From assembly GCA_016193315.1 (NCBI GenBank), contig JACPSJ010000001.1, forward strand, positions 471,478 to 535,477: DNA of 64,000 bases, given 5' to 3'. Both the position numbers and the translations under genes were made by a program. Of this stretch, positions 1,975 through 12,444 are shown one piece after another. The notes beneath the pieces were generated by a model. The model made no database searches, was not told where the DNA came from, and was given only the letters and a program-made list of their open reading frames with translations. Origin of the DNA: Candidatus Kerfeldbacteria bacterium. GTDB lineage: Bacteria > Patescibacteriota > Patescibacteriia > SBBC01 > CAIJZX01. Position 1 is the first letter of the stretch, and the number at the start of each line of letters is the position of its first letter.

Positions 1975-4692
1975 ATGGCCTGGCTCAGCAAGTTATTTGG
2001 TGATGCCAACCAGCGGGCACTGCAATCGCTCAGTCCGCTGGTGGTGGAAATTAACGCTTGGCGAACGAAGTTAAAATCCTGGCCTGATGACCGCCTGGCC
2101 GGGAGGATGCAGGAGTTACGCCAAGCCGTGGCCGGGGATGCTCGTCGGCTGGATTCATTCCTGCCCGAAGTTTTTGCCCTCGTGCGCGACGCCAGTCGTC
2201 GGGCGCTGAAACAAGAGCACTTTGATGTCCAGCTGCAGGGCGGGATCGTTCTCCACCGCGGGGCCATCGCCGAAATGAAGACGGGCGAAGGAAAAACATT
2301 GGTGGCCACGGCGCCGGTGGCGCTCAACGCGCTGACCGGACAGGGAGTGCATGTGGTGACGGTGAATGACTATCTCGCCCGGCGGGATGCCGGCTGGATG
2401 GGTCAGGTCTATCATCTGCTCGGGCTGTCGGTCGGAGTGATTATTCATGAGCAGGCTTTTCGTTTCGACCCCACCTTCATCGACCCGAACGCCCTGGAGG
2501 AGCGGACCGCACACCTCCGACCCGTGACGCGGCCGGAAGCCTACCAAGCGGACATTACCTACGGGACGAACAATGAGTTCGGCTTCGATTACCTGCGTGA
2601 CAACATGGTACCCGACCGCCGCTACCTCGTGCAGCGACCGTTTGCCTACGCCATCATTGACGAGGTTGATAGCATTCTCATCGATGAAGCCCGGACACCG
2701 CTGATTATCTCCGCTCCGGCTGAGGAGTCTTCAGAGCGGTATCGTAAGTTTGCTCAATTGGTAACGCAGCTCGAAGCCGAGACTGATTACTTGGTCGACG
2801 AAAAAATGCGGGCCGCGACCTTAACCGAAGCTGGCATCGCGCGAGTCGAACGAAGCTTGGGTCTCGACAATATTTACACCGCTGGCGGCATTGAGCTGGT
2901 CCATCACCTCGAGCAAGCGCTGAAAGCCAAGACGCTTTTTCAACGCGACCGTGACTACGTTGTCCGGGAAGGCGAAGTCGTTATCGTCGACGAGTTCACC
3001 GGACGACTGATGTTCGGTCGGCGGTATTCCGAAGGGTTACACCAGGCGATCGAGGCCAAGGAGGGCTTGTCGGTCAAACAGGAGAGTCAAACGCTGGCCA
3101 CCATTTCACTGCAGAACCTTTTTCGGCTCTACCCGAAACTGGCCGGAATGACCGGCACAGCCGCCACCGAAGCTGAGGAGTTCCATAAGATTTATAACCT
3201 CGATGTCGCGGTGGTGCTAACCCACCGTCCAATGGTCCGCCGCGACTTGCCCGACAGCGTCTATAAAAACCAGCAGGGGAAGTTCCTGGCGGTCGTCCGG
3301 GAAGTCAAACGGCGACACACGGCCGGCCAGCCGATTCTCCTCGGCACCATCTCCATCGAAAAAAATGAACTCCTCAGCGAACTATTGCGTCGGGAGGGGA
3401 TTAGTCATGAAATTCTCCATGCCAAGAATCACGAGCGCGAAGCGCAAATTATCGCTCAAGCCGGTCGCTACGGCGCCGTCACCCTGGCCACTAATATCGC
3501 CGGCCGCGGCGTTGACATTATCCTCGGCGGCTCATCGACCGAGCCGGCCGAAGCCGAGCGGGTGAGGGGGGCCGGCGGTCTCCACGTCATCGGTACTGAG
3601 CGACATGAATCGCGGCGGATTGATAACCAGCTGCGCGGTCGCTCCGGGCGCCAAGGCGATCCTGGATCAAGCCAATTCTTCGTCTCGATGGAAGATGATC
3701 TGATGCGAATTTTTGGGTCTGACCGGATGAAGCGCATGATGGATCGGCTGGGCGTACCAGATGACATGCCGATCGAGAGTCAGCTGGTTTCCAAGTCGAT
3801 CGAACAAGCGCAGAAGAAGGTGGAGGGTCACAACTTCGACATTCGCAAACACTTGGTGGAGTACGATGACGTGATGAACAAGCACCGCGAAGTGATTTAC
3901 AAGCGTCGACGAGAAATTCTGCTGGCGGCGGGATCGGACGTCGAGCGGCGGGTGGAGGAAATGGTGGAGAAGGAAATGAGTCAAATCGTGTCCTTCCACA
4001 CCGCGGCGGAGACGGAAAGTACCTGGGATCTCGACGCCATGTACAATGCGGTCGAAGCGATCGGCCTAGTCGGTCTCAAAGGACGGTTGAAACTCGAGGA
4101 TTTCCGCGATCAAGCCGGCGACCAAGCCCACGACGCGCAGGCGCGAACGGCCATGGTCGGCTTTTTAATGACCGAAGCTAGGTCAAGGCTTGAAGCCCTT
4201 CGTCGTCAGGCTCCAGACCCCAAAGTATGGTCAGAGGTGGTGCGCAACGTCATCCTGCGGACCATTGATCAATTGTGGGTCGAACATCTTGACCTGATGG
4301 AACGGCTGCGCGAGGGGATTGGCCTCCGCGGTTACGGCCAAAAAGATCCGTTGGTGGAGTACAAAAAGGAAGCCTTCGATATCTTTACGCAACTGATCAA
4401 CTCCACCAACTCCCAGGTAGTGCAGACTGTATTCCGCCTGGCCTTCAGTGCTAGCGAGGCCGGACCAACTCCGGCCGAGCGACCACAACTCGTATTTTCG
4501 GCGCCGCAAAAGGAAGCCAGCCAAGCCAGAAGTCAAAGCCCGTTTGTGGCCGCCCGGCCGGTTGTCGGCGGCGTCGATTTAGCCAAGGTGGGACGCAACG
4601 ACCCTTGTCCTTGTGGCTCTGGCAAAAAATTCAAGAAGTGCTACTTAGCCAACAGCCCAGACTGCCGGATTTTGCATCCCGCGCCAGCTTGA
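1975..4692 (+). CDS. secA: Preprotein translocase ATPase SecA
   Basis: 905-aa ORF with canonical SecA N-terminus, DEAD-like motor motifs and the C-terminal zinc finger CPCGSGKKFKKC. Confidence 0.95.
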   Translation: MAWLSKLFGDANQRALQSLSPLVVEINAWRTKLKSWPDDRLAGRMQELRQAVAGDARRLDSFLPEVFALVRDASRRALKQEHFDVQLQGGIVLHRGAIAEMKTGEGKTLVATAPVALNALTGQGVHVVTVNDYLARRDAGWMGQVYHLLGLSVGVIIHEQAFRFDPTFIDPNALEERTAHLRPVTRPEAYQADITYGTNNEFGFDYLRDNMVPDRRYLVQRPFAYAIIDEVDSILIDEARTPLIISAPAEESSERYRKFAQLVTQLEAETDYLVDEKMRAATLTEAGIARVERSLGLDNIYTAGGIELVHHLEQALKAKTLFQRDRDYVVREGEVVIVDEFTGRLMFGRRYSEGLHQAIEAKEGLSVKQESQTLATISLQNLFRLYPKLAGMTGTAATEAEEFHKIYNLDVAVVLTHRPMVRRDLPDSVYKNQQGKFLAVVREVKRRHTAGQPILLGTISIEKNELLSELLRREGISHEILHAKNHEREAQIIAQAGRYGAVTLATNIAGRGVDIILGGSSTEPAEAERVRGAGGLHVIGTERHESRRIDNQLRGRSGRQGDPGSSQFFVSMEDDLMRIFGSDRMKRMMDRLGVPDDMPIESQLVSKSIEQAQKKVEGHNFDIRKHLVEYDDVMNKHREVIYKRRREILLAAGSDVERRVEEMVEKEMSQIVSFHTAAETESTWDLDAMYNAVEAIGLVGLKGRLKLEDFRDQAGDQAHDAQARTAMVGFLMTEARSRLEALRRQAPDPKVWSEVVRNVILRTIDQLWVEHLDLMERLREGIGLRGYGQKDPLVEYKKEAFDIFTQLINSTNSQVVQTVFRLAFSASEAGPTPAERPQLVFSAPQKEASQARSQSPFVAARPVVGGVDLAKVGRNDPCPCGSGKKFKKCYLANSPDCRILHPAPA

Positions 4693-4779: not shown

Positions 4780-5298
4780 ATGCAGCTGCTTCGAACGGGA
4801 TTATCTGACCGCGAGTTGGCGAGCAGTCTGTTTGCTCTCTGTCTCCAGGCCGACGCTGCCTTTGGCGGAGAGTTTGTCGACGCCGCCGCCAGCTACGGTT
4901 ACACCATTCATGTCCCGGAAGACGCGATCGACCACGGCGAATTACTGATTGCCCTGGTGTGGTTGGTGCAATGGATTTCTCGATCCCGACCGGGTCTCGT
5001 GCATGCCCTCGGGGGCCATTACCTATCGGCGGTCACCTCACTACCGTACTTCGGTAACCGCACGGACCGGCAGGCGTTAGAACGATTCTTCATCGACCGC
5101 ACCCATCACTATGACAGCCTGGTTGAACGGTCAGCCCAAGGACTTGACCTCATTGAGGTGGCCTACGAAATGTCAAAATATGCCCTCCGGAACTGGTTCG
5201 AAGTCCAGCATCACCTGCCGCGAGTCGAGATCGTCGTGGCCCACCTGCTAACTCAGTGGGTGGTCTCGGTGACCCAGACGGTTAAGGAGCTGTCATAA
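4780..5298 (+). CDS. Hypothetical protein
   Basis: 172-aa ORF with ATG start and coding-like composition. No recognisable family. Confidence 0.45.
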   Translation: MQLLRTGLSDRELASSLFALCLQADAAFGGEFVDAAASYGYTIHVPEDAIDHGELLIALVWLVQWISRSRPGLVHALGGHYLSAVTSLPYFGNRTDRQALERFFIDRTHHYDSLVERSAQGLDLIEVAYEMSKYALRNWFEVQHHLPRVEIVVAHLLTQWVVSVTQTVKELS

Positions 5299-5353: not shown

Positions 5354-5543
5354 TGTTAATGTTCAGCCTGAAAACTGGACTTGTGTTCCTTACAGAAACA
5401 CAAAAAGAAAAACAAAAGCGCGGGGAGAGGCTCCGAGTGCTCGTTGATCTCGAACTAAATCGAGCGCAGCGAACACTCGGGTGGTCCTGATCGAGAACGT
5501 TACTTCGAGATGGATCCGTCAGCCTCTCCCTCCCACCCTTTTC

Positions 5544-6950
5544 ATGACGACTGTTTCGACGGCCCGTCAGTTTTCAATATCGGTCATTAGCCTGGGCATA
5601 CTCGGGGTAAGTTTTGCGACTCCGGCCGCGGCGCAATCTACAACCTGGCAACGGACGGCAGCTTTTGCGATGCCGAGCGAGGGCTCAACCACCGACGTTT
5701 TTGGGGGCGTGTTTCGAGGCGGAGCGAGCGTCGCCGCTGGTGATATTGACGGCGATGGCGACGAAGAAATTATCCTTGGCGCTGGGCGCGGTGGTGGACC
5801 GCACGTGGAAATCTACCGACCCGACGGCCGCCAAGTGGGTTCGTTTTTCGTTTTTAAACGGTCCCTGCACGCTGGTCTGAGCGTGGCGGCTGGCGATCTC
5901 GATGGCGACCACCAAGCAGAAATTATCGTCGGTCCGCGCGGAGACTACGCCCCAGAAATCCAAATCTACGATGACCACGGCCGCCGACAAGCTTCCTGGT
6001 TGGCCTTTGAGGCGTCGTACACCGGGGGTATTGAAGTCGCGGTCCTCCGGGCTGAGGGCGATCGGGCGGGCATGATTCTGGTCGCCAGCGGCAGCGGTCG
6101 CGACCAGGAAGTCCGAGCCTTCAGCCCGACCGGCCAACTACTTTTTCAGGATTGGTACCCCCACGGTAGGAATCCGGGCCACGGACTCGACATTGCCGCC
6201 ACGGACAGTTCCGTCTTTCATGAACCGGTGTTGGTGAGTGTACCCGGTGTCGGCGAGAAACCGTTGGTCTTAGTCCATGGTTTGTACTCCGGACGACTGC
6301 TGGCCTCCTGGCTGGCCTATGACCAGCGGGTGAAAACCGGCTTGTCAGTGGCGGCCGCCGACGGAACGGTAGTCACCGGTCCAGGTCGGCGGGGTGGTCC
6401 GGAAGTCCGGATATTCAGCGTTCGCGGTGTTCTTGATCGCGCCTACCGGGTATTCGAACCGACCTATTTCGGTGGTCTCGAAGTCGGCCTTCTCCGCCGT
6501 GGCGGCCGTCTCGAGTCAGTCGCCACCCCCAGCGGCAAACCGAGCCATTGGCTCCATCCGAAAATGGACAAGGCCATTGTGATCGACTTATCCGAACAGC
6601 AGTTGTACCTACTCGAGGGTGATCGGGTGATTTCGGTCCGGTCGGTATCGACCGGCCAATGGTCAACCCCGACGCCAGTCGGTAGCTTCCGGACGAAGAA
6701 TAAGATCGGCGTGGCCTACTCGCGGCGCTACGGATTGTACATGGAGTATTGGATGGCGTTTACGCCGGACGGCGCCTACGGACTCCACGCCCTGCCGTAC
6801 TGGTTGCTACGGAATGGGCAGAAGCACTACGAGGGCACCAACCACCTGGGCACGCCAGTTTCCCACGGTTGCATCCGCCAACGCCTCGAGGATGCCCGGT
6901 CGCTCTATGACTGGGCACCGATTGGGACGACCGTCATCGTTCGGCCCTAA
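5544..6950 (+). CDS. Secreted FG-GAP/VCBS-repeat protein fused to a C-terminal L,D-transpeptidase (YkuD) catalytic domain
   Basis: Signal peptide (FSISVISLGILGVSFATPAAAQ). Repeated GDIDGDGDEEIILG / GDLDGDHQAEIIVG FG-GAP motifs. C-terminal YkuD motif ... SHGCIR ... with the catalytic Cys. Confidence 0.75.
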   Translation: MTTVSTARQFSISVISLGILGVSFATPAAAQSTTWQRTAAFAMPSEGSTTDVFGGVFRGGASVAAGDIDGDGDEEIILGAGRGGGPHVEIYRPDGRQVGSFFVFKRSLHAGLSVAAGDLDGDHQAEIIVGPRGDYAPEIQIYDDHGRRQASWLAFEASYTGGIEVAVLRAEGDRAGMILVASGSGRDQEVRAFSPTGQLLFQDWYPHGRNPGHGLDIAATDSSVFHEPVLVSVPGVGEKPLVLVHGLYSGRLLASWLAYDQRVKTGLSVAAADGTVVTGPGRRGGPEVRIFSVRGVLDRAYRVFEPTYFGGLEVGLLRRGGRLESVATPSGKPSHWLHPKMDKAIVIDLSEQQLYLLEGDRVISVRSVSTGQWSTPTPVGSFRTKNKIGVAYSRRYGLYMEYWMAFTPDGAYGLHALPYWLLRNGQKHYEGTNHLGTPVSHGCIRQRLEDARSLYDWAPIGTTVIVRP

Positions 6951-7027: not shown

Positions 7028-8674
7028 ATGCGTCGCTCCCGGGTCTGGTTCAGTTTTGGCTCCATTGTTGTCCTGGCTTTGTTAGCTGGCTATGTTGACT
7101 GGCCACAGGCACCGAAGCTAACCTTCCCGCCATTCAACCGGTCGTTCCCGCTCCGTCTCGGCCTTGATATTCAAGGCGGCAGCAGTTTGCTGTACGAAGC
7201 CGATGTCAGTAAAGTTCCGGCTGGAGATCGAGATTCGGCCTTGGCCGGTGTGCGCGATGTGATTGAACGCCGGGTCAATGCTTTTGGCGTGGCCGAGCCG
7301 GTGGTCCAAACCAGCCGGGTCGGTGGGCATTACCGCGTGGTGGTGGAACTGGCCGGTATCCATGACGTCAACGAGGCCATCCGTCAAATCGGCGAAACGC
7401 CGCTGTTGGAGTTCCGTAAGCCAGCCGGTCTACCAGACGCCGAAGCGAAGGCCAAGGCCGAAGAAGTACTGGCCAAGGCCAAGCAAGCAGGCAGTGATTT
7501 TTCCGCCCTGGCCAAAGAGTTTTCCGACGACCCCGGCAGTCGCGACCGGGGTGGAGATTTGGGTTTTGCTCGCCCCGGACAGTTTGTGCCAGAGTTCGAG
7601 CAGGCCTTGTTCGATCAATTGACCGTCGGCCAAATCAGCGACCAAACGGTAAAATCAAAATTCGGGTACCACATTATCAAGAAAATAGAAGAACGCGAGG
7701 TGGACGAGGACGAAAAGAAAATCAAGGAGGTTCATGGGGCCCATATCCTAATCGCCAGTCTCGAAAGTTCTCAAGAGGTCGGTAACTACCTGCCGACGAA
7801 ACTGTCGGGGAAACAGCTGCGACGGGCGGACGTGACTTTTGATCCGAATACTGGGGCGCCGGAAGTACAGTTGCAATTCAACGCCGAGGGATCAAAGTTA
7901 TTTGCCGAATTGACGAAGCAATACCTCCAGCGAGTGATTGGCATCTATCTGGATGGCCAGCCAATTAGTCTGCCGGTCGTCCAGTCAGAAATCACCTCTG
8001 GCACGGCGGTCATCACCGGCAACTTCAGTCTCGACGAAGCTAAGCAGTTGGCCCGGCGTTTGAACGCCGGGGCGCTGCCAGTGCCAATCACCCTCGTGAG
8101 CCAGCAGAACGTTGGCGCCAGTCTTGGGCAGTCGGCCGTGGAGCGAAGTTTTGCGGCCGGTTTGCTGGGGCTGGTTTTCGTAGCGGTGTTCATGATCTTG
8201 TACTATCGATTACCTGGCTTGCTGGCCGTCGTGGCCCTGGTGATCTACAGCCTGCTGGTGCTGGCGATTTTTAAGCTCTGGCCGGTGACCCTGACCTTGG
8301 CCGGCATGGCCGGCTTCATCCTCTCGATCGGCATGGCCGTCGATGCTAATATCCTCGTCTTTGAACGAACCAAGGAGGAGCTCCGCGCCGGACGACCATT
8401 ACGGTCGGCGATTGATGAGGGCTTTCGGCGAGCCTGGTTGTCGATTCGTGACTCCAACGTCTCCAGCCTGATTACCTCCTTCATTTTAATTTGGTTTGGC
8501 ACCAGCTTGGTCAAGGGTTTTGCCTTGACCCTAGCCATTGGGATCCTGGTATCGATGTTTTCCGCCTTGACGGTCACCCGCACCTTTCTGCACCTGGTGA
8601 CTGGCCCATGGATGGGCCGGCATTTGTGGCTCTTTGGCGTCTCCAGCGCACCAGCGACTTCGTCCGATGTTTAG
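7028..8674 (+). CDS. secD: Protein translocase subunit SecD; its periplasmic P1-head region carries parvulin-like motifs
   Basis: N-terminal TM plus SecD P1 base motifs ([25 protein letters not shown]) and the C-terminal 6-TM SecD core. The internal segment has GGDLGF ... FGYHIIK ... AHILIA motifs. Confidence 0.9.
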
Positions 8675-9572
8675 GATCATCCAAAAACGCCGCTGGTTGT
8701 TTATCCTGTCACTCCTAATTTTGGTACCAGGGCTGGTGGCGCTCGTTCGATTTGGCCTCAAGCTGGGCATTGACTTTACGGGCGGGACGCGAATGGTAGT
8801 TGCCTTTAGCGGGGACCGACCGAGCGGAACGTCGGTCATCGCCACGGTCAGCGATTTAGACCTCGGCCAAGTGACCACCCAAACCGCGGGTCAGAAAGAA
8901 ATGGTCTTGCGGTTGTCGAGCATCAGTAATGACCAACGTCAGCGCCTGCTGGAGCGATTGCAGGAGAAATTTCCGGGCGCGATGGAAGCCAGTTTCGATT
9001 CGATTGGCCCAACCATCGGCGCCGAACTGCTCCGCAAGGCCTATCTAGCCCTCGGTCTCGTGTTGCTGGCCATCGTGGTCTACGTCAGCTGGGCTTTCCG
9101 GCGGGTCAATGTCGGTCCGGTACCGGCCTCAGTCTACGGTTTGTCCGCCATTGTCGCCTTGGCCCACGATGTCTTGGTAGTGGTCGGCATTTTTGCCATC
9201 CTCGGTCACTATCGTGGAGCGGAAATCGACAGCCTGTTCGTGACCGCGGTCCTGACGGTGCTCGGTTTTTCGGTCCACGACACGATCGTCGTCTTCGACC
9301 GCATTCGCGAACGACTTTTGATCGGTGGTGAGTCGACATTTGAAGACACCGTTAACGTCAGCCTCAACCAGACGCTCACCCGGTCACTCAATACCTCACT
9401 GACCACCTTGTTTGTCCTGGTAGCCCTCTACCTTTTTGGCGGCGAAACGATCAAGTATTTCGTCCTGGCTCTGATCATCGGTATCGTTTCCGGCACCTAC
9501 TCCTCGATTTTCGTGGCCTCGCCATTACTGGTGGTCTACGAAGGCTGGAAGCGGCGGCGGGCACATCGCTAA
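8667..9572 (+). CDS. secF: Protein translocase subunit SecF
   Basis: [26 protein letters not shown] ... GIDFTGGT ... SecF signature. ATG at 8667 overlaps the secD end. Confidence 0.9.
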
Positions 9573-9715
9573 CATCCACGAACGAGCTCTGACGTTTTTG
9601 TTGGCAACAGAGTCTTCTTTCTGTACAAAACAGAGAGCAGTTTTCTTAGATGCTGGTCTTACAGAGCAGCACCACTGGACTATTGGGTCAGCTATGTTAC
9701 TATCACCCACGGAAC

Positions 9716-9744
9716 TTGACAGAGTTGCAACAAAATGCTATATT
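9716..9744 (+). promoter_or_regulatory. Putative sigma70-type promoter (TTGACA-N17-TATATT)
   Basis: ttgaca 9716-9721, 17-nt spacer, tatatt 9739-9744. About 25 nt upstream of the ATG at 9770. Confidence 0.5.
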
Positions 9745-9769
9745 CAATATTGACAGCAATTTATGGTCA

Positions 9770-10960
9770 ATGGCCGTTGAGCAACAATCTTCCGCCGGAT
9801 CGGGCGGTTCCCTTTTGGACCGAGTGCTGCTGAGCCAGCAGTCGGTCGCGCTTGAGCATTTCGATCCGGCCGACATTGTCAACGAACTACTGAAACAACT
9901 GTCGACCAAAGAGACCGACGTCTTGCGCCGTCGGTTTGCGCTGGGGCAGGAGGAAAGAGAAACGCTGGAGAAAATCGGCCAGCGGTACCACGTCACGCGG
10001 GAACGAGTACGGCAAATCGAACGCTGGGCGATTGACCGTCTCCGCCACTCCGGCCCGACCAGAACCTTACTTCACGATCTCGATGTCCTCTTGCAGCAAG
10101 TCTTGGAAGAACATGGCGGTTTGATGCGAGCAGACGAATTGTTCCAAGCTCTCCACAGCCATTCGTCACAAACCGCCCAATCTCAAGCGGCGATCGAATT
10201 TCTGCTCCACGAACTGATGACTGAGAAAGTTGAACGGCGATCGGGGCTCGGGATGAAGCCGTACTGGAAGTTGCGTTTCGGCAGCTTTGAACTGATGCCG
10301 CAGGTCATCGCCGAAGCCGAACGGGTCATTCGGGAGGTCGGCAAACCAATGGACCGGGATCGGCTGCTAGCCGGACTCAGGCAGCGGCCGCTCATTCGCG
10401 AGCAAGCTGAGCAACTCAGCGATCAGATCATCCTCAGCTACCTCAGCGTAGCCAAATCGATTGAGCGGAATCCCTATGGTGAGTACGGTCTGCGGAGCTG
10501 GGGCAGCATTATTCCCCGGCGGATGCACGACAAAATCCTGCTGGTCATGCGCAAGCACGGTCAGCCTCTCCACTTTCAGGAGATTACGCAGAAGATCAAC
10601 GAAATGGGTTTTGACCAGCGTCAGGCCTACCCGCCGACCGTCCACAACGAACTGATCCTCAACGACGAATACGTATTGGTTGGTCGCGGGATCTACGCTC
10701 TGCGCGAATGGGGCTACCAGCCGGGGGTAGTGGCCGATGTCCTAGCCAGCACTCTCCGCCAAGCCGGACGACCGCTGGCCCGGGAAGAGCTGGTGGAGAA
10801 AGTACTCCAACAACGAATGGTGAAACGGAACACCATCCACCTGGCCCTGACCAACAAACAGCGCTTCCATCGTTTACCCGATGGGCGATACGAGCTGGTC
10901 GAATCGGCCAGCGGCCACGGTCCCCTCCTGGTCAAAGGTAAAATATCATCGGCCGAATGA
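9770..10960 (+). CDS. Sigma-70 region-4 domain protein with C-terminal HARE-HTH-like domain(s)
   Basis: N-terminal region resembles sigma70 region 4 (ETDVLRRRFALGQEERETLEKIGQRYHVTRERVRQIERWAIDRLR). C-terminal region resembles the HARE-HTH fold of RNAP delta (ILLVMRKHGQPLHFQEITQKINEMGF ... YVLVGRGIYALREWGY). Confidence 0.6.
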   Translation: MAVEQQSSAGSGGSLLDRVLLSQQSVALEHFDPADIVNELLKQLSTKETDVLRRRFALGQEERETLEKIGQRYHVTRERVRQIERWAIDRLRHSGPTRTLLHDLDVLLQQVLEEHGGLMRADELFQALHSHSSQTAQSQAAIEFLLHELMTEKVERRSGLGMKPYWKLRFGSFELMPQVIAEAERVIREVGKPMDRDRLLAGLRQRPLIREQAEQLSDQIILSYLSVAKSIERNPYGEYGLRSWGSIIPRRMHDKILLVMRKHGQPLHFQEITQKINEMGFDQRQAYPPTVHNELILNDEYVLVGRGIYALREWGYQPGVVADVLASTLRQAGRPLAREELVEKVLQQRMVKRNTIHLALTNKQRFHRLPDGRYELVESASGHGPLLVKGKISSAE

Positions 10961-11049: not shown

Positions 11050-12444
11050 ATGGACATTTCGATCGTCATTCCGGAGTTCGCCAACCCCTTCGCTGCGCTG
11101 TGGTGGGCCTTTACCCACGGCGGTTTTATCATTGTCATCATTGCCCTCGGCTATGGCTTCTGGTGGATCTACCTCCAGGCGATTCAGATTCGTTTTTTGA
11201 CGAGGCGGCGCTATGTCTTACTAGCCATCGATGTGCCCAAAGAGAACGAACAGACCCCCAAAGCGGTTGAGCACATCTTCAGTCACTTTTCTGGCATCTA
11301 CCGTCAGGCCAACCTGGTTGAAAAATATGTCCACGGTTATGTCCAGCTGGCCATTAGCGTCGAACTCGTTTCACTCGGCGGCTACATCCAGTACCTCGTC
11401 CGTTGTCCGGCCGAGCACCGCGACTTGGTGGAGGCGGCCATCTACGCCCAGTATCCTGAGGCCGAAATCTCCGAAGTCGAAGACTATGCCTTTCAAGTCG
11501 CCCCCAAATTCCCGAACGATGAATACGACGTCTGGGCGTCCGAACTCGAGCTGACGAACAAAGAGGCCTACCCGATTCGCACCTATCCTTTGTGGGAACA
11601 CCCGTTAACGCAGACATTCCTGGACCCGATGGCGGCGTTACTGGAAGTTTTGGCCCGCCTCCGGGAAGGCGAACAAATCTGGTTACAGTGGGTCATCCGT
11701 CCACCGGCGAACGACCGCTGGCGGGAACGTGGCTTGGACCTGATTAACAAGCTGATCGGCGCGAAAGTCAAACCCAAGCGCGGCGCTCTTGATGTCCTGG
11801 TCGATACGCCAAGCAATGTCCTGATCGGTACCTACGAAACGATCACCCGGACACTGTTCGAACCAACTAGCGTCACCCAACGGCAGGAGAACGGACCGCC
11901 CAGCCTGATGCAACATTTGGCGCCGAACGTGCGGGCCGTGGTCGAAGGGATCGGTATCAAGATCTCGAAAACCGGCTTTCAAACGAAGGGCCGATTCGTG
12001 TACCTCGGTCGGAAAGATGTCTTCGATCGCACGCGAGTGAACGCCATTTTCGGTGCCTTGCGACAGTTTGCTTCGATGGACATGAACGGTTTCAAGCCGG
12101 ACAAGAAAATGAAAACGAAGCGGAATTATTTTCGGGTTGAGCAGCGAGAAGCAGTCTTGAAACGGCGGATCATCCTCGGCTATCGCGATCGTAGCCTATG
12201 GGCCGGGCGCTCGACGTACGTGCTGAACATCGAAGAGCTGGCCTCGGTTTGGCACTTCCCCGTGCGGACAGTCAAGGCGCCGCTGGTGAAGAAGACTGAA
12301 GCCAAGCGGGGCGAGCCGCCAAGCGCCCTGCCGCTCGGTCAGTTGCCGGAACGGCCGGCCACGCCAACCATGTCTAGCCCCGGGCCCGCCATCGCCCCCG
12401 GTCCGACGCGCGGCGCGGCACCCGAAAACCTGCCAGTCGCCTAG
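11050..12444 (+). CDS. Membrane protein of unknown function (N-terminal TM helices plus about 400-aa soluble domain), partner of the downstream ATPase
   Basis: 464-aa ORF with hydrophobic N-terminus (FAALWWAFTHGGFIIVIIALGYGFWWIYL). Stop lies 2 nt before the next start. No recognised family. Confidence 0.6.
   Translation: MDISIVIPEFANPFAALWWAFTHGGFIIVIIALGYGFWWIYLQAIQIRFLTRRRYVLLAIDVPKENEQTPKAVEHIFSHFSGIYRQANLVEKYVHGYVQLAISVELVSLGGYIQYLVRCPAEHRDLVEAAIYAQYPEAEISEVEDYAFQVAPKFPNDEYDVWASELELTNKEAYPIRTYPLWEHPLTQTFLDPMAALLEVLARLREGEQIWLQWVIRPPANDRWRERGLDLINKLIGAKVKPKRGALDVLVDTPSNVLIGTYETITRTLFEPTSVTQRQENGPPSLMQHLAPNVRAVVEGIGIKISKTGFQTKGRFVYLGRKDVFDRTRVNAIFGALRQFASMDMNGFKPDKKMKTKRNYFRVEQREAVLKRRIILGYRDRSLWAGRSTYVLNIEELASVWHFPVRTVKAPLVKKTEAKRGEPPSALPLGQLPERPATPTMSSPGPAIAPGPTRGAAPENLPVA

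Follow-up and report, generated by a model that had tools for sequence, protein, structure and literature searches.

A parvulin domain, very probably circularly permuted, inserted in the P1 region of a patescibacterial SecD

The SecD protein of Candidatus Kerfeldbacteria bacterium, encoded at positions 7028..8674 (+ strand, stop codon included; 548 amino acids in the list of open reading frames, ORFs) of a 64,000-nucleotide stretch of contig JACPSJ010000001.1 (assembly GCA_016193315.1; hereafter the window, whose positions serve as coordinates throughout), carries a parvulin peptidyl-prolyl isomerase (PPIase) domain in its P1 region. That such a domain is inserted in P1 is practically certain, and it is very probable that the domain is circularly permuted, the counterpart of its first strand standing behind its last. 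Taken as a whole, the reading that we consider likely is that of a complete, circularly permuted parvulin located in the P1 connector and acting in cis as a foldase or as a substrate-holding module. A sequence-only reading of this DNA had drawn attention to region 7420-7800, which corresponds to residues 132-258 of the ORF, and the peptides that it located there are correct (ETPLLEFRK at residue 123, AKQAGSDF at 151, GGDLG at 175, FGYHIIK at 212, HGAHILIAS at 236 and TKLSGKQL at 257).

The parvulin domain and its site in P1

The insert is recognized over residues 136-222 by two Pfam profiles of parvulin PPIases, Rotamase_3 (PF13616; E = 5.8e-25, 88.5 bits for a cutoff of 22.5) and Rotamase (PF00639; E = 1.5e-21, 77.6 bits for a cutoff of 21.7). 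Moreover, the NCBIfam models of SurA and PrsA match it at 1e-18 to 1e-20, and its best sequence match in the Protein Data Bank (PDB), where PrsA structures are found as well, is the P2 domain of SurA (E = 2.6e-24 in native order and 9.3e-26 after the rearrangement described below). The parvulin-like motifs noticed in the P1 region of SecD thus reflect a rotamase similarity far above chance, and the profile searches return more than a canonical P1 head alone. SecD and the parvulins are both well-known families, and their combination is already visible in precomputed Pfam annotations, the proteins being named simply SecD.

Structure prediction with AlphaFold 2 (AF2), whose models were read by secondary structure and confidence scores, yields a compact and confident domain and no disordered linker. 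Modelled on its own (residues 130-256), the insert forms a single compact domain with a predicted local distance difference test score (pLDDT) of 94.3 and a predicted template modelling score (pTM) of 0.87, and in the full-length model it is the most confidently predicted part of the protein. In Foldseek, the domain model finds its best PDB match in a periplasmic PPIase of the parvulin type (8hm3/8hm4; E = 6.7e-7, TMq 0.69). Three PDB matches at E <= 1e-3 were obtained, despite the SurA sequence match at 1e-24; a sequential 3Di aligner may be handicapped by a permutant topology, and this search was not counted as evidence. With the full-length model, SecDF and RND pumps dominate the Foldseek output and the parvulin matches are buried.

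Regarding the site of insertion, a phmmer alignment to SecDF of Thermus thermophilus (3AQP) pairs residues 41-131 of the query with Thermus residues 32-117 and residues 256-524 with Thermus residues 157-425, so that residues 132-255 (7421..7792, + strand; 124 amino acids) stand in place of a 39-residue segment, Thermus residues 118-156. The N-terminal part of the P1 base (7157..7420, + strand, residues 44-131), which aligns with 3AQP residues 32-117, ends in a sequence of 11 residues immediately ahead of the insert, and Pfam SecD_1st matches it over residues 75-132 (E = 1.6e-16). The P1 head follows behind (7799..8083, + strand, residues 258-352; Pfam SecDF_P1_head, E = 2e-28, profile positions 20-114 of 114). 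Among relatives, the linker between base and head has a median length of 30 amino acids in 71 SecDs free of parvulin and of 139 amino acids in 197 SecDs with one. As judged from these alignments, the parvulin is inserted where the P1 base connects to the P1 head, and the head is kept. On two points the sequence-only reading has to be corrected: the 17-residue segment that it took for a P1 base strand is the start of the P1 head, and the head is not replaced by the insert, which sits in the base/head connector.

Strand order of the inserted domain

Canonical parvulins follow the order β1-α1-α2-α3-β2-α4-β3-β4, and the insert departs from it, the β1 equivalent coming after β4. Its core, α1-α2-α3-β2-α4-β3-β4 (7433..7693, + strand, residues 136-222), is delimited by Pfam, by the AF2 secondary structure and by the motifs of a 22-residue sequence and FGYHIIK. 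The native-order profile matches begin at position 32 of 116 (PF13616) and 15 of 97 (PF00639), which leaves the N-terminal β1 part of the profile unmatched in front of the core. An 11-residue strand of the β1 type is found after FGYHIIK of β4 and not ahead of α1. This relocated strand, β1' (15 residues; 7715..7759, + strand, residues 230-244), is predicted by AF2 to form one hairpin with β4 (residues 213-227), with a strand pLDDT of ~90-97, and a short helix then leads into the head. A register estimated from turn motifs in homologues (DG or NG) indicates that a β-bulge may be needed for the histidines of both strands to lie on the same side.

When residues 230-249 are moved to the front, the insert aligns end to end with SurA-P2 (residues 262-368) and Pin1 (residues 55-163), β1' then standing opposite VTEVHARHILL of SurA-P2 and VRCSHLLV of Pin1. 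Upon this rearrangement, the coverage of PF00639 extends from 15-96 to 1-96 and its score from 81.4 to 85.4 bits, while ten control constructs (six shuffles, one reversal and three decoy strands) score 81.2-81.7 bits and start at position 14-15. The strand order is widely shared: among 144 single-insert SecDs, a strand of the pattern H-[ILVM]-[ILVFM] occurs only after the core in 135, before it in none and not at all in 9, and the same motif precedes the core in 51 of the 61 stand-alone single-core parvulins of the same genome scan. Moreover, a 17-column hidden Markov model (HMM) built from the SecD strand picks out the canonical β1 of unrelated parvulins that stand alone, where it lies upstream of the core. 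The histidine of β4 and that of the post-core strand are also lost together: across 258 permuted domains, 242 have both, 7 that of β4 only, none that of the strand only and 9 neither (Fisher p = 9e-13, and 5e-6 for SecD alone, phylogeny not being corrected for). Several independent lines, namely alignment, Pfam, conservation, census, histidine coupling, HMM and AF2, hence agree with the earlier suspicion of a permuted parvulin whose HIL strand comes after the core. Such a permutation would account for the truncated appearance of these domains in annotations by standard profiles.

It could also be that there is no permutation, the insert being a core devoid of β1 and the 11-residue strand opening the SecD P1 head. 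In favour of this, the strand lies directly before the head, and the head profile leaves its first 19 positions unaccounted for. However, 112 of 120 stand-alone PrsA-like proteins, in which there is no SecD head, have this strand behind the core. Parvulin-free SecDs have just a linker of ~30 amino acids and no such element, and the segment of T. thermophilus SecDF at this site is non-homologous and 39 residues long. In addition, the strand can be matched to the canonical β1 in SurA-P2, Pin1 and other parvulins, its histidine is invariant and disappears together with that of β4, and the isolated insert folds compactly without the head in the AF2 prediction (pTM 0.87). An unpermuted core is hence very improbable. 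No paper on a SecD-parvulin fusion or on a circularly permuted parvulin was found in the literature searched, subscription journals being outside its reach, and the permutation of the parvulin fold is apparently undescribed.

Catalytic residues and tandem forms

A BLASTP alignment to Pin1 places Asp168 (codon gac, 7529..7531, + strand) at the position of Cys113, His215 in β4 (codon cac, 7670..7672, + strand) at that of His157, His239 in β1' (codon cat, 7742..7744, + strand) at that of His59, and S210 at that of Thr152. The catalytic positions of parvulins (Pin1 His59, Cys113/Asp, Thr152/Ser154 and His157) are thus occupied by H239, D168, S210 and H215. Within an alignment of 45 SecDs of 57-75% identity (A1), H215, H239 and I240 are invariant, the two histidines being invariant in alignment A2 as well, and D168, G175, D177, E189, F190, Y214, I217, E234 and L241 are conserved to at least 90%. 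Position 210 holds either Ser or Thr, and in the hydrophobic pocket L178, V187 and F190 are each at least 90% conserved if not invariant. Both histidines are present in 130 of 138 single-insert homologues (~93%). That the domain is an active foldase or holdase working on translocating chains is reasonably probable.

Other SecDs, 650-1075 amino acids long, contain two parvulin cores at the same site as the single insert. Their P1 base is followed by a core A, often degenerate and with no β1 in front, then by the sequence EVKASHILI, a core B, another strand and the P1 head. For Pfam, core B is a complete canonical parvulin (PF00639 positions 1-97 of 97), and in 27 of 31 of these proteins both β4 of B and the strand ahead of B retain their histidine, while β4 of A and the final strand have lost theirs. 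The full set of catalytic residues is always kept in one copy. The simplest reading of these sequences is that domain B, canonical and putatively active, lies within the β4/β1' hairpin of domain A, which would be permuted and degenerate. Examples are proteins P0124-P0126, P0130-P0132 and P0164 and loci L008-L012 (e.g., L011:2716-4779), P0164 and L010 being single-chain SecDF fusions of more than 1000 amino acids.

The tandem forms bear on a different explanation, in which the parvulin would be permuted but catalytically inert, as are the parvulin domains of PpiD and SurA P1, and would lend the P1 head no more than an extra surface for binding or holdase function, or a structural spacer. The outer tandem copy has lost both histidines, and often GGDLG too, yet it has been kept; a few single-insert SecDs lack both histidines, and the parvulin domain of PpiD is inactive. 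The window protein itself, however, belongs to the large majority of single-insert SecDs that keep both histidines, and the conservation in A1 of Asp168 together with L178, V187 and F190 corresponds to the pattern of the active parvulins SurA P2 and Par10, the tandem forms for their part retaining one intact residue set. We therefore regard an inert domain as rather unlikely, although it carries far more weight than an unpermuted core.

Several observations count against a complete, permuted parvulin that acts as foldase or substrate holder in cis. Some parvulins having both histidines are inactive, such as SurA P1, and one parvulin copy has degenerated in the tandem forms, which implies that catalysis by every copy is not required. 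The full-length AF2 model has a pTM of just 0.44, and its inter-domain placement is hence unreliable. Finally, the gain in Pfam score obtained by rearrangement is small (~4 bits), with PF00639 alone separating the real construct from all controls and PF13616 discriminating poorly (98.4 bits for the real construct and 97.3 for the best shuffle).

Distribution, related foldases and possible function

All of the best 120 homologues (57-100% identity) combine Rotamase and SecD domains, which speaks for selection on the fusion, the named ones being assigned to Kerfeldbacteria, Nomurabacteria and "Patescibacteria group". An exhaustive HMMER search with the P1 region gave 324 clusters (50% identity) at E <= 1e-30, and among the best 150 of them ~69 have no parvulin core, ~49 have one and ~32 have two. 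A scan of GTDB species representatives, which is a sample and no census, identified at least 12 fusion loci in Buchanan-, Komeili-, Magasanik-, Parcu- and Peregrinibacteria and in unclassified Patescibacteria. Among the GTDB matches listed, one Uhrbacteria SecD is without the insert, no fusion was seen outside Patescibacteria, and every match from outside the Candidate Phyla Radiation (CPR) is a stand-alone parvulin protein. The fusion is common in Patescibacteria. The earlier remark that it is no standard SecD feature holds for characterized SecDs and fails for a large part of the Patescibacteria, where homologue surveys show it to be the norm.

A wider range was considered on account of two fusion loci labelled as Proteobacteria, both on short contigs. 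The first (L002, JAACEG010000012.1), binned as Lysobacteraceae, was rejected, since its 29.9% GC is incompatible with that family, and with a SecD 57% identical to CPR proteins it is almost certainly mis-binned CPR; the placement of the other (L012, CAYQNA010000026.1; a 5.8-kb contig of 47.5% GC binned as Gammaproteobacteria) is uncertain. With 56.6% GC, compared with 29-47.5% in the other fusion-bearing CPR loci (L001-L013), the window comes from an unusually GC-rich Patescibacteria genome.

As the source is a metagenome-assembled genome, the fusion might be suspected to be an artefact of assembly or gene calling, arising from a chimeric contig or from genes fused by a frameshift. Nonetheless, the SecD reading frame is unbroken across the insert, and more than 190 distinct homologues, drawn from independent samples and belonging to several candidate phyla, share this architecture. 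The conservation data refute this explanation, to which we assign a negligible probability.

The permuted order is also found in stand-alone proteins. Those of locus L023 (Saccharimonadales; 2281-3366) and locus L063 (2311-3405) consist of SurA_N_3 and a permuted parvulin with no β1 upstream, and among the 120 closest relatives of the Saccharimonadales protein (P0271-P0390), which belong to Saccharimonadia and other Patescibacteria and are named "peptidylprolyl isomerase" or "foldase protein PrsA", 112 are permuted and none is canonical. Standard profiles report the stand-alone permuted domain as N-terminally truncated. These PrsA-like foldases share with the SecD insert the order α1...β4 followed by an EVxASHILI strand, at ~48% mean core identity, but differ in the host of the parvulin, a SurA_N_3 chaperone domain in their case and SecD in the window. 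Three Pyrinomonadaceae (Acidobacteriota) proteins are likewise permuted, with a core followed by EVHARHIL (L016:2002-3579, L037:2089-3591 and L037:3663-5102), the L016 protein having an N-terminal zinc ribbon in the Pfam scan; they suggest that the permutation is older or wider than CPR, or that it has been transferred. Mean core identities to the single SecD insert (0.48 for CPR PrsA-like proteins, 0.46 for canonical parvulins, 0.38 for tandem B and 0.28 for tandem A) do not discriminate between a CPR PrsA-like gene, a canonical parvulin and a tandem form as the origin of the insert, nor do they tell which host came first. A stand-alone permuted foldase gene adjoining secDF was not found in the two genomes examined, and no second parvulin gene is present in the 64-kb window.

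Outside the insert, the protein has the features of a SecD. It is 100% identical to [quoted passage not shown] (P0001), the NCBIfam secD model TIGR01129 gives 398.3 bits for a cutoff of 244.4, and the full-length model matches SecDF structures in Foldseek. TM1 (7034..7099, + strand, residues 3-24), assigned from the AF2 helix and the T. thermophilus SecDF alignment, places the following loop outside the cytoplasm, and beyond the P1 base and head lies the membrane domain with TM2-6 (8093..8602, + strand, residues 356-525 from Pfam and the 3AQP alignment; Pfam SecD_SecF_C over residues 356-521, E = 1.4e-13). Asp439, the equivalent of the TM4 proton-pathway residue Asp340 of T. thermophilus, is invariant in 45 homologues. 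The adjoining secF (8634..9572, + strand; 312 amino acids as listed) matches SecD_SecF_C (E = 1.8e-57) and Sec_GG. With TIGR01129, the invariant D439 and the adjacent secF, the motor part of this SecD looks intact and functional at the level of its sequence. As listed, secF starts with TTG and overlaps secD by 41 nucleotides (8634-8674); its true start could be an internal Met, given with a sequence of 10 residues, a few codons downstream and inside the overlap. By Pfam, the gene upstream of secD (5481-6950) encodes FG-GAP repeats and a YkuD L,D-transpeptidase and the gene downstream of secF (9650-10960) Sigma70_r4 and HARE-HTH domains, and ORFs 4780-5298 and 11050-12444 have no Pfam match.

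In the reading that we favour, the chain enters α1 directly from the last P1-base strand, runs through α1-α2-α3-β2-α4-β3-β4, turns back in a hairpin to give β1 with the first catalytic histidine as its last element, and continues into the P1 head. In canonical parvulins the two termini are neighbours at the outer end of the β1/β4 pair, and in Pin1 the β1/α1 junction borders the substrate-binding loop by the active site. The permutation would shut the β1/β4 end by a hairpin and open the β1/α1 junction, creating two adjacent tether points beside the active-site loop; the catalytic cleft would thus be held near the base/head hinge, an arrangement that would suit insertion into a host loop. While SecDF pulls a chain from SecYEG, the parvulin might receive it unfolded and isomerize its prolyl bonds, hold the extracted chain, or both. 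It would do in cis the job that PrsA, PpiD or SurA do in trans, and could replace a separate factor of the PrsA or PpiD type. A mechanical coupling of the parvulin to the swing of the P1 head is speculative.

Patescibacteria are generally regarded as single-membraned, like Firmicutes, and in monoderms PrsA acts at the translocon exit. PrsA of B. subtilis and other Firmicutes is likewise a parvulin PPIase working on the trans side, on chains just out of SecYEG, but it is a separate lipoprotein of canonical strand order whose parvulin lies inside an NC chaperone domain, whereas the parvulin of the window is permuted, without NC domain and part of SecD. SurA is soluble, periplasmic and of canonical order, and its contact is transient; the contact in the window protein is covalent and permanent. 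PpiD resembles the window SecD in being membrane-anchored and in having a parvulin, but as a separate protein it brings its own TM anchor, and it also has a SurA_N-like chaperone domain. No SurA_N-type domain was matched in the window SecD by Pfam, and this protein is hence not a chaperone of the PrsA, SurA or PpiD type, though it may work like one. Thermus SecDF (3AQP, 5YHF) and Deinococcus SecDF (5XAN) share with it the P1 base, the P1 head, the TM core and the proton-pathway Asp, but where it has a parvulin of 124 residues they have the 39-residue non-parvulin segment (Thermus residues 118-156).

Contacts between SecDF and parvulins have been proposed elsewhere. SecDF uses the proton-motive force to drive movements of its P1 head, by which the chain is bound as it emerges and drawn off SecYEG (PMC6028853), and in the PpiD/YfgM complex the membrane-anchored, parvulin-containing PpiD promotes translocation at the translocon exit (PMC9643414). 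AlphaFold models put SurA parvulin domains on the P1 head of E. coli SecDF (PMC9987972). Moreover, Mpn444 and Mpn436 of Mycoplasma pneumoniae, which are surface lipoproteins bearing an active parvulin, form cross-links with SecD, and a role in folding chains as these leave Sec has been proposed for them (bioRxiv 10.1101/2024.09.05.611430); unlike the window protein, they are separate, large trimeric lipoproteins with no insertion in SecD. The SurA models and the M. pneumoniae cross-links make a coupling of the inserted parvulin to translocation plausible.

The fusion bears on how chains leaving SecYEG reach their folding helpers. For the contacts of SecDF with SurA, PpiD and PrsA-like lipoproteins, the evidence to date consists of low-resolution electron microscopy, cross-links and AlphaFold docking. 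The natural fusion, covalent and widely conserved, of a parvulin to P1 of SecD is classic Rosetta-stone evidence for a SecDF-parvulin partnership and offers a compact test system, and a parvulin fold naturally permuted in two kinds of host protein is useful for studies of protein evolution and domain insertion. As a further and tentative step, which we hold to be possible but short of an even chance, an active SecD parvulin might be coupled to the proton-driven swing of the head, each power stroke handing the chain to the cleft, so that a single polypeptide would form a "pull-and-fold" machine replacing PrsA, PpiD or SurA in the genome-reduced Patescibacteria. If so, the fusion would be independent Rosetta-stone evidence that parvulin chaperones and the P1 head of SecDF form a functional unit across bacteria, an idea already put forward for SurA and SecDF of E. 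coli, and the permutation would be the adaptation by which the domain can be accommodated in a loop while its active site points to the hinge. For the biology of CPR bacteria, the fusion hints at how organisms with tiny genomes economize on envelope proteostasis.

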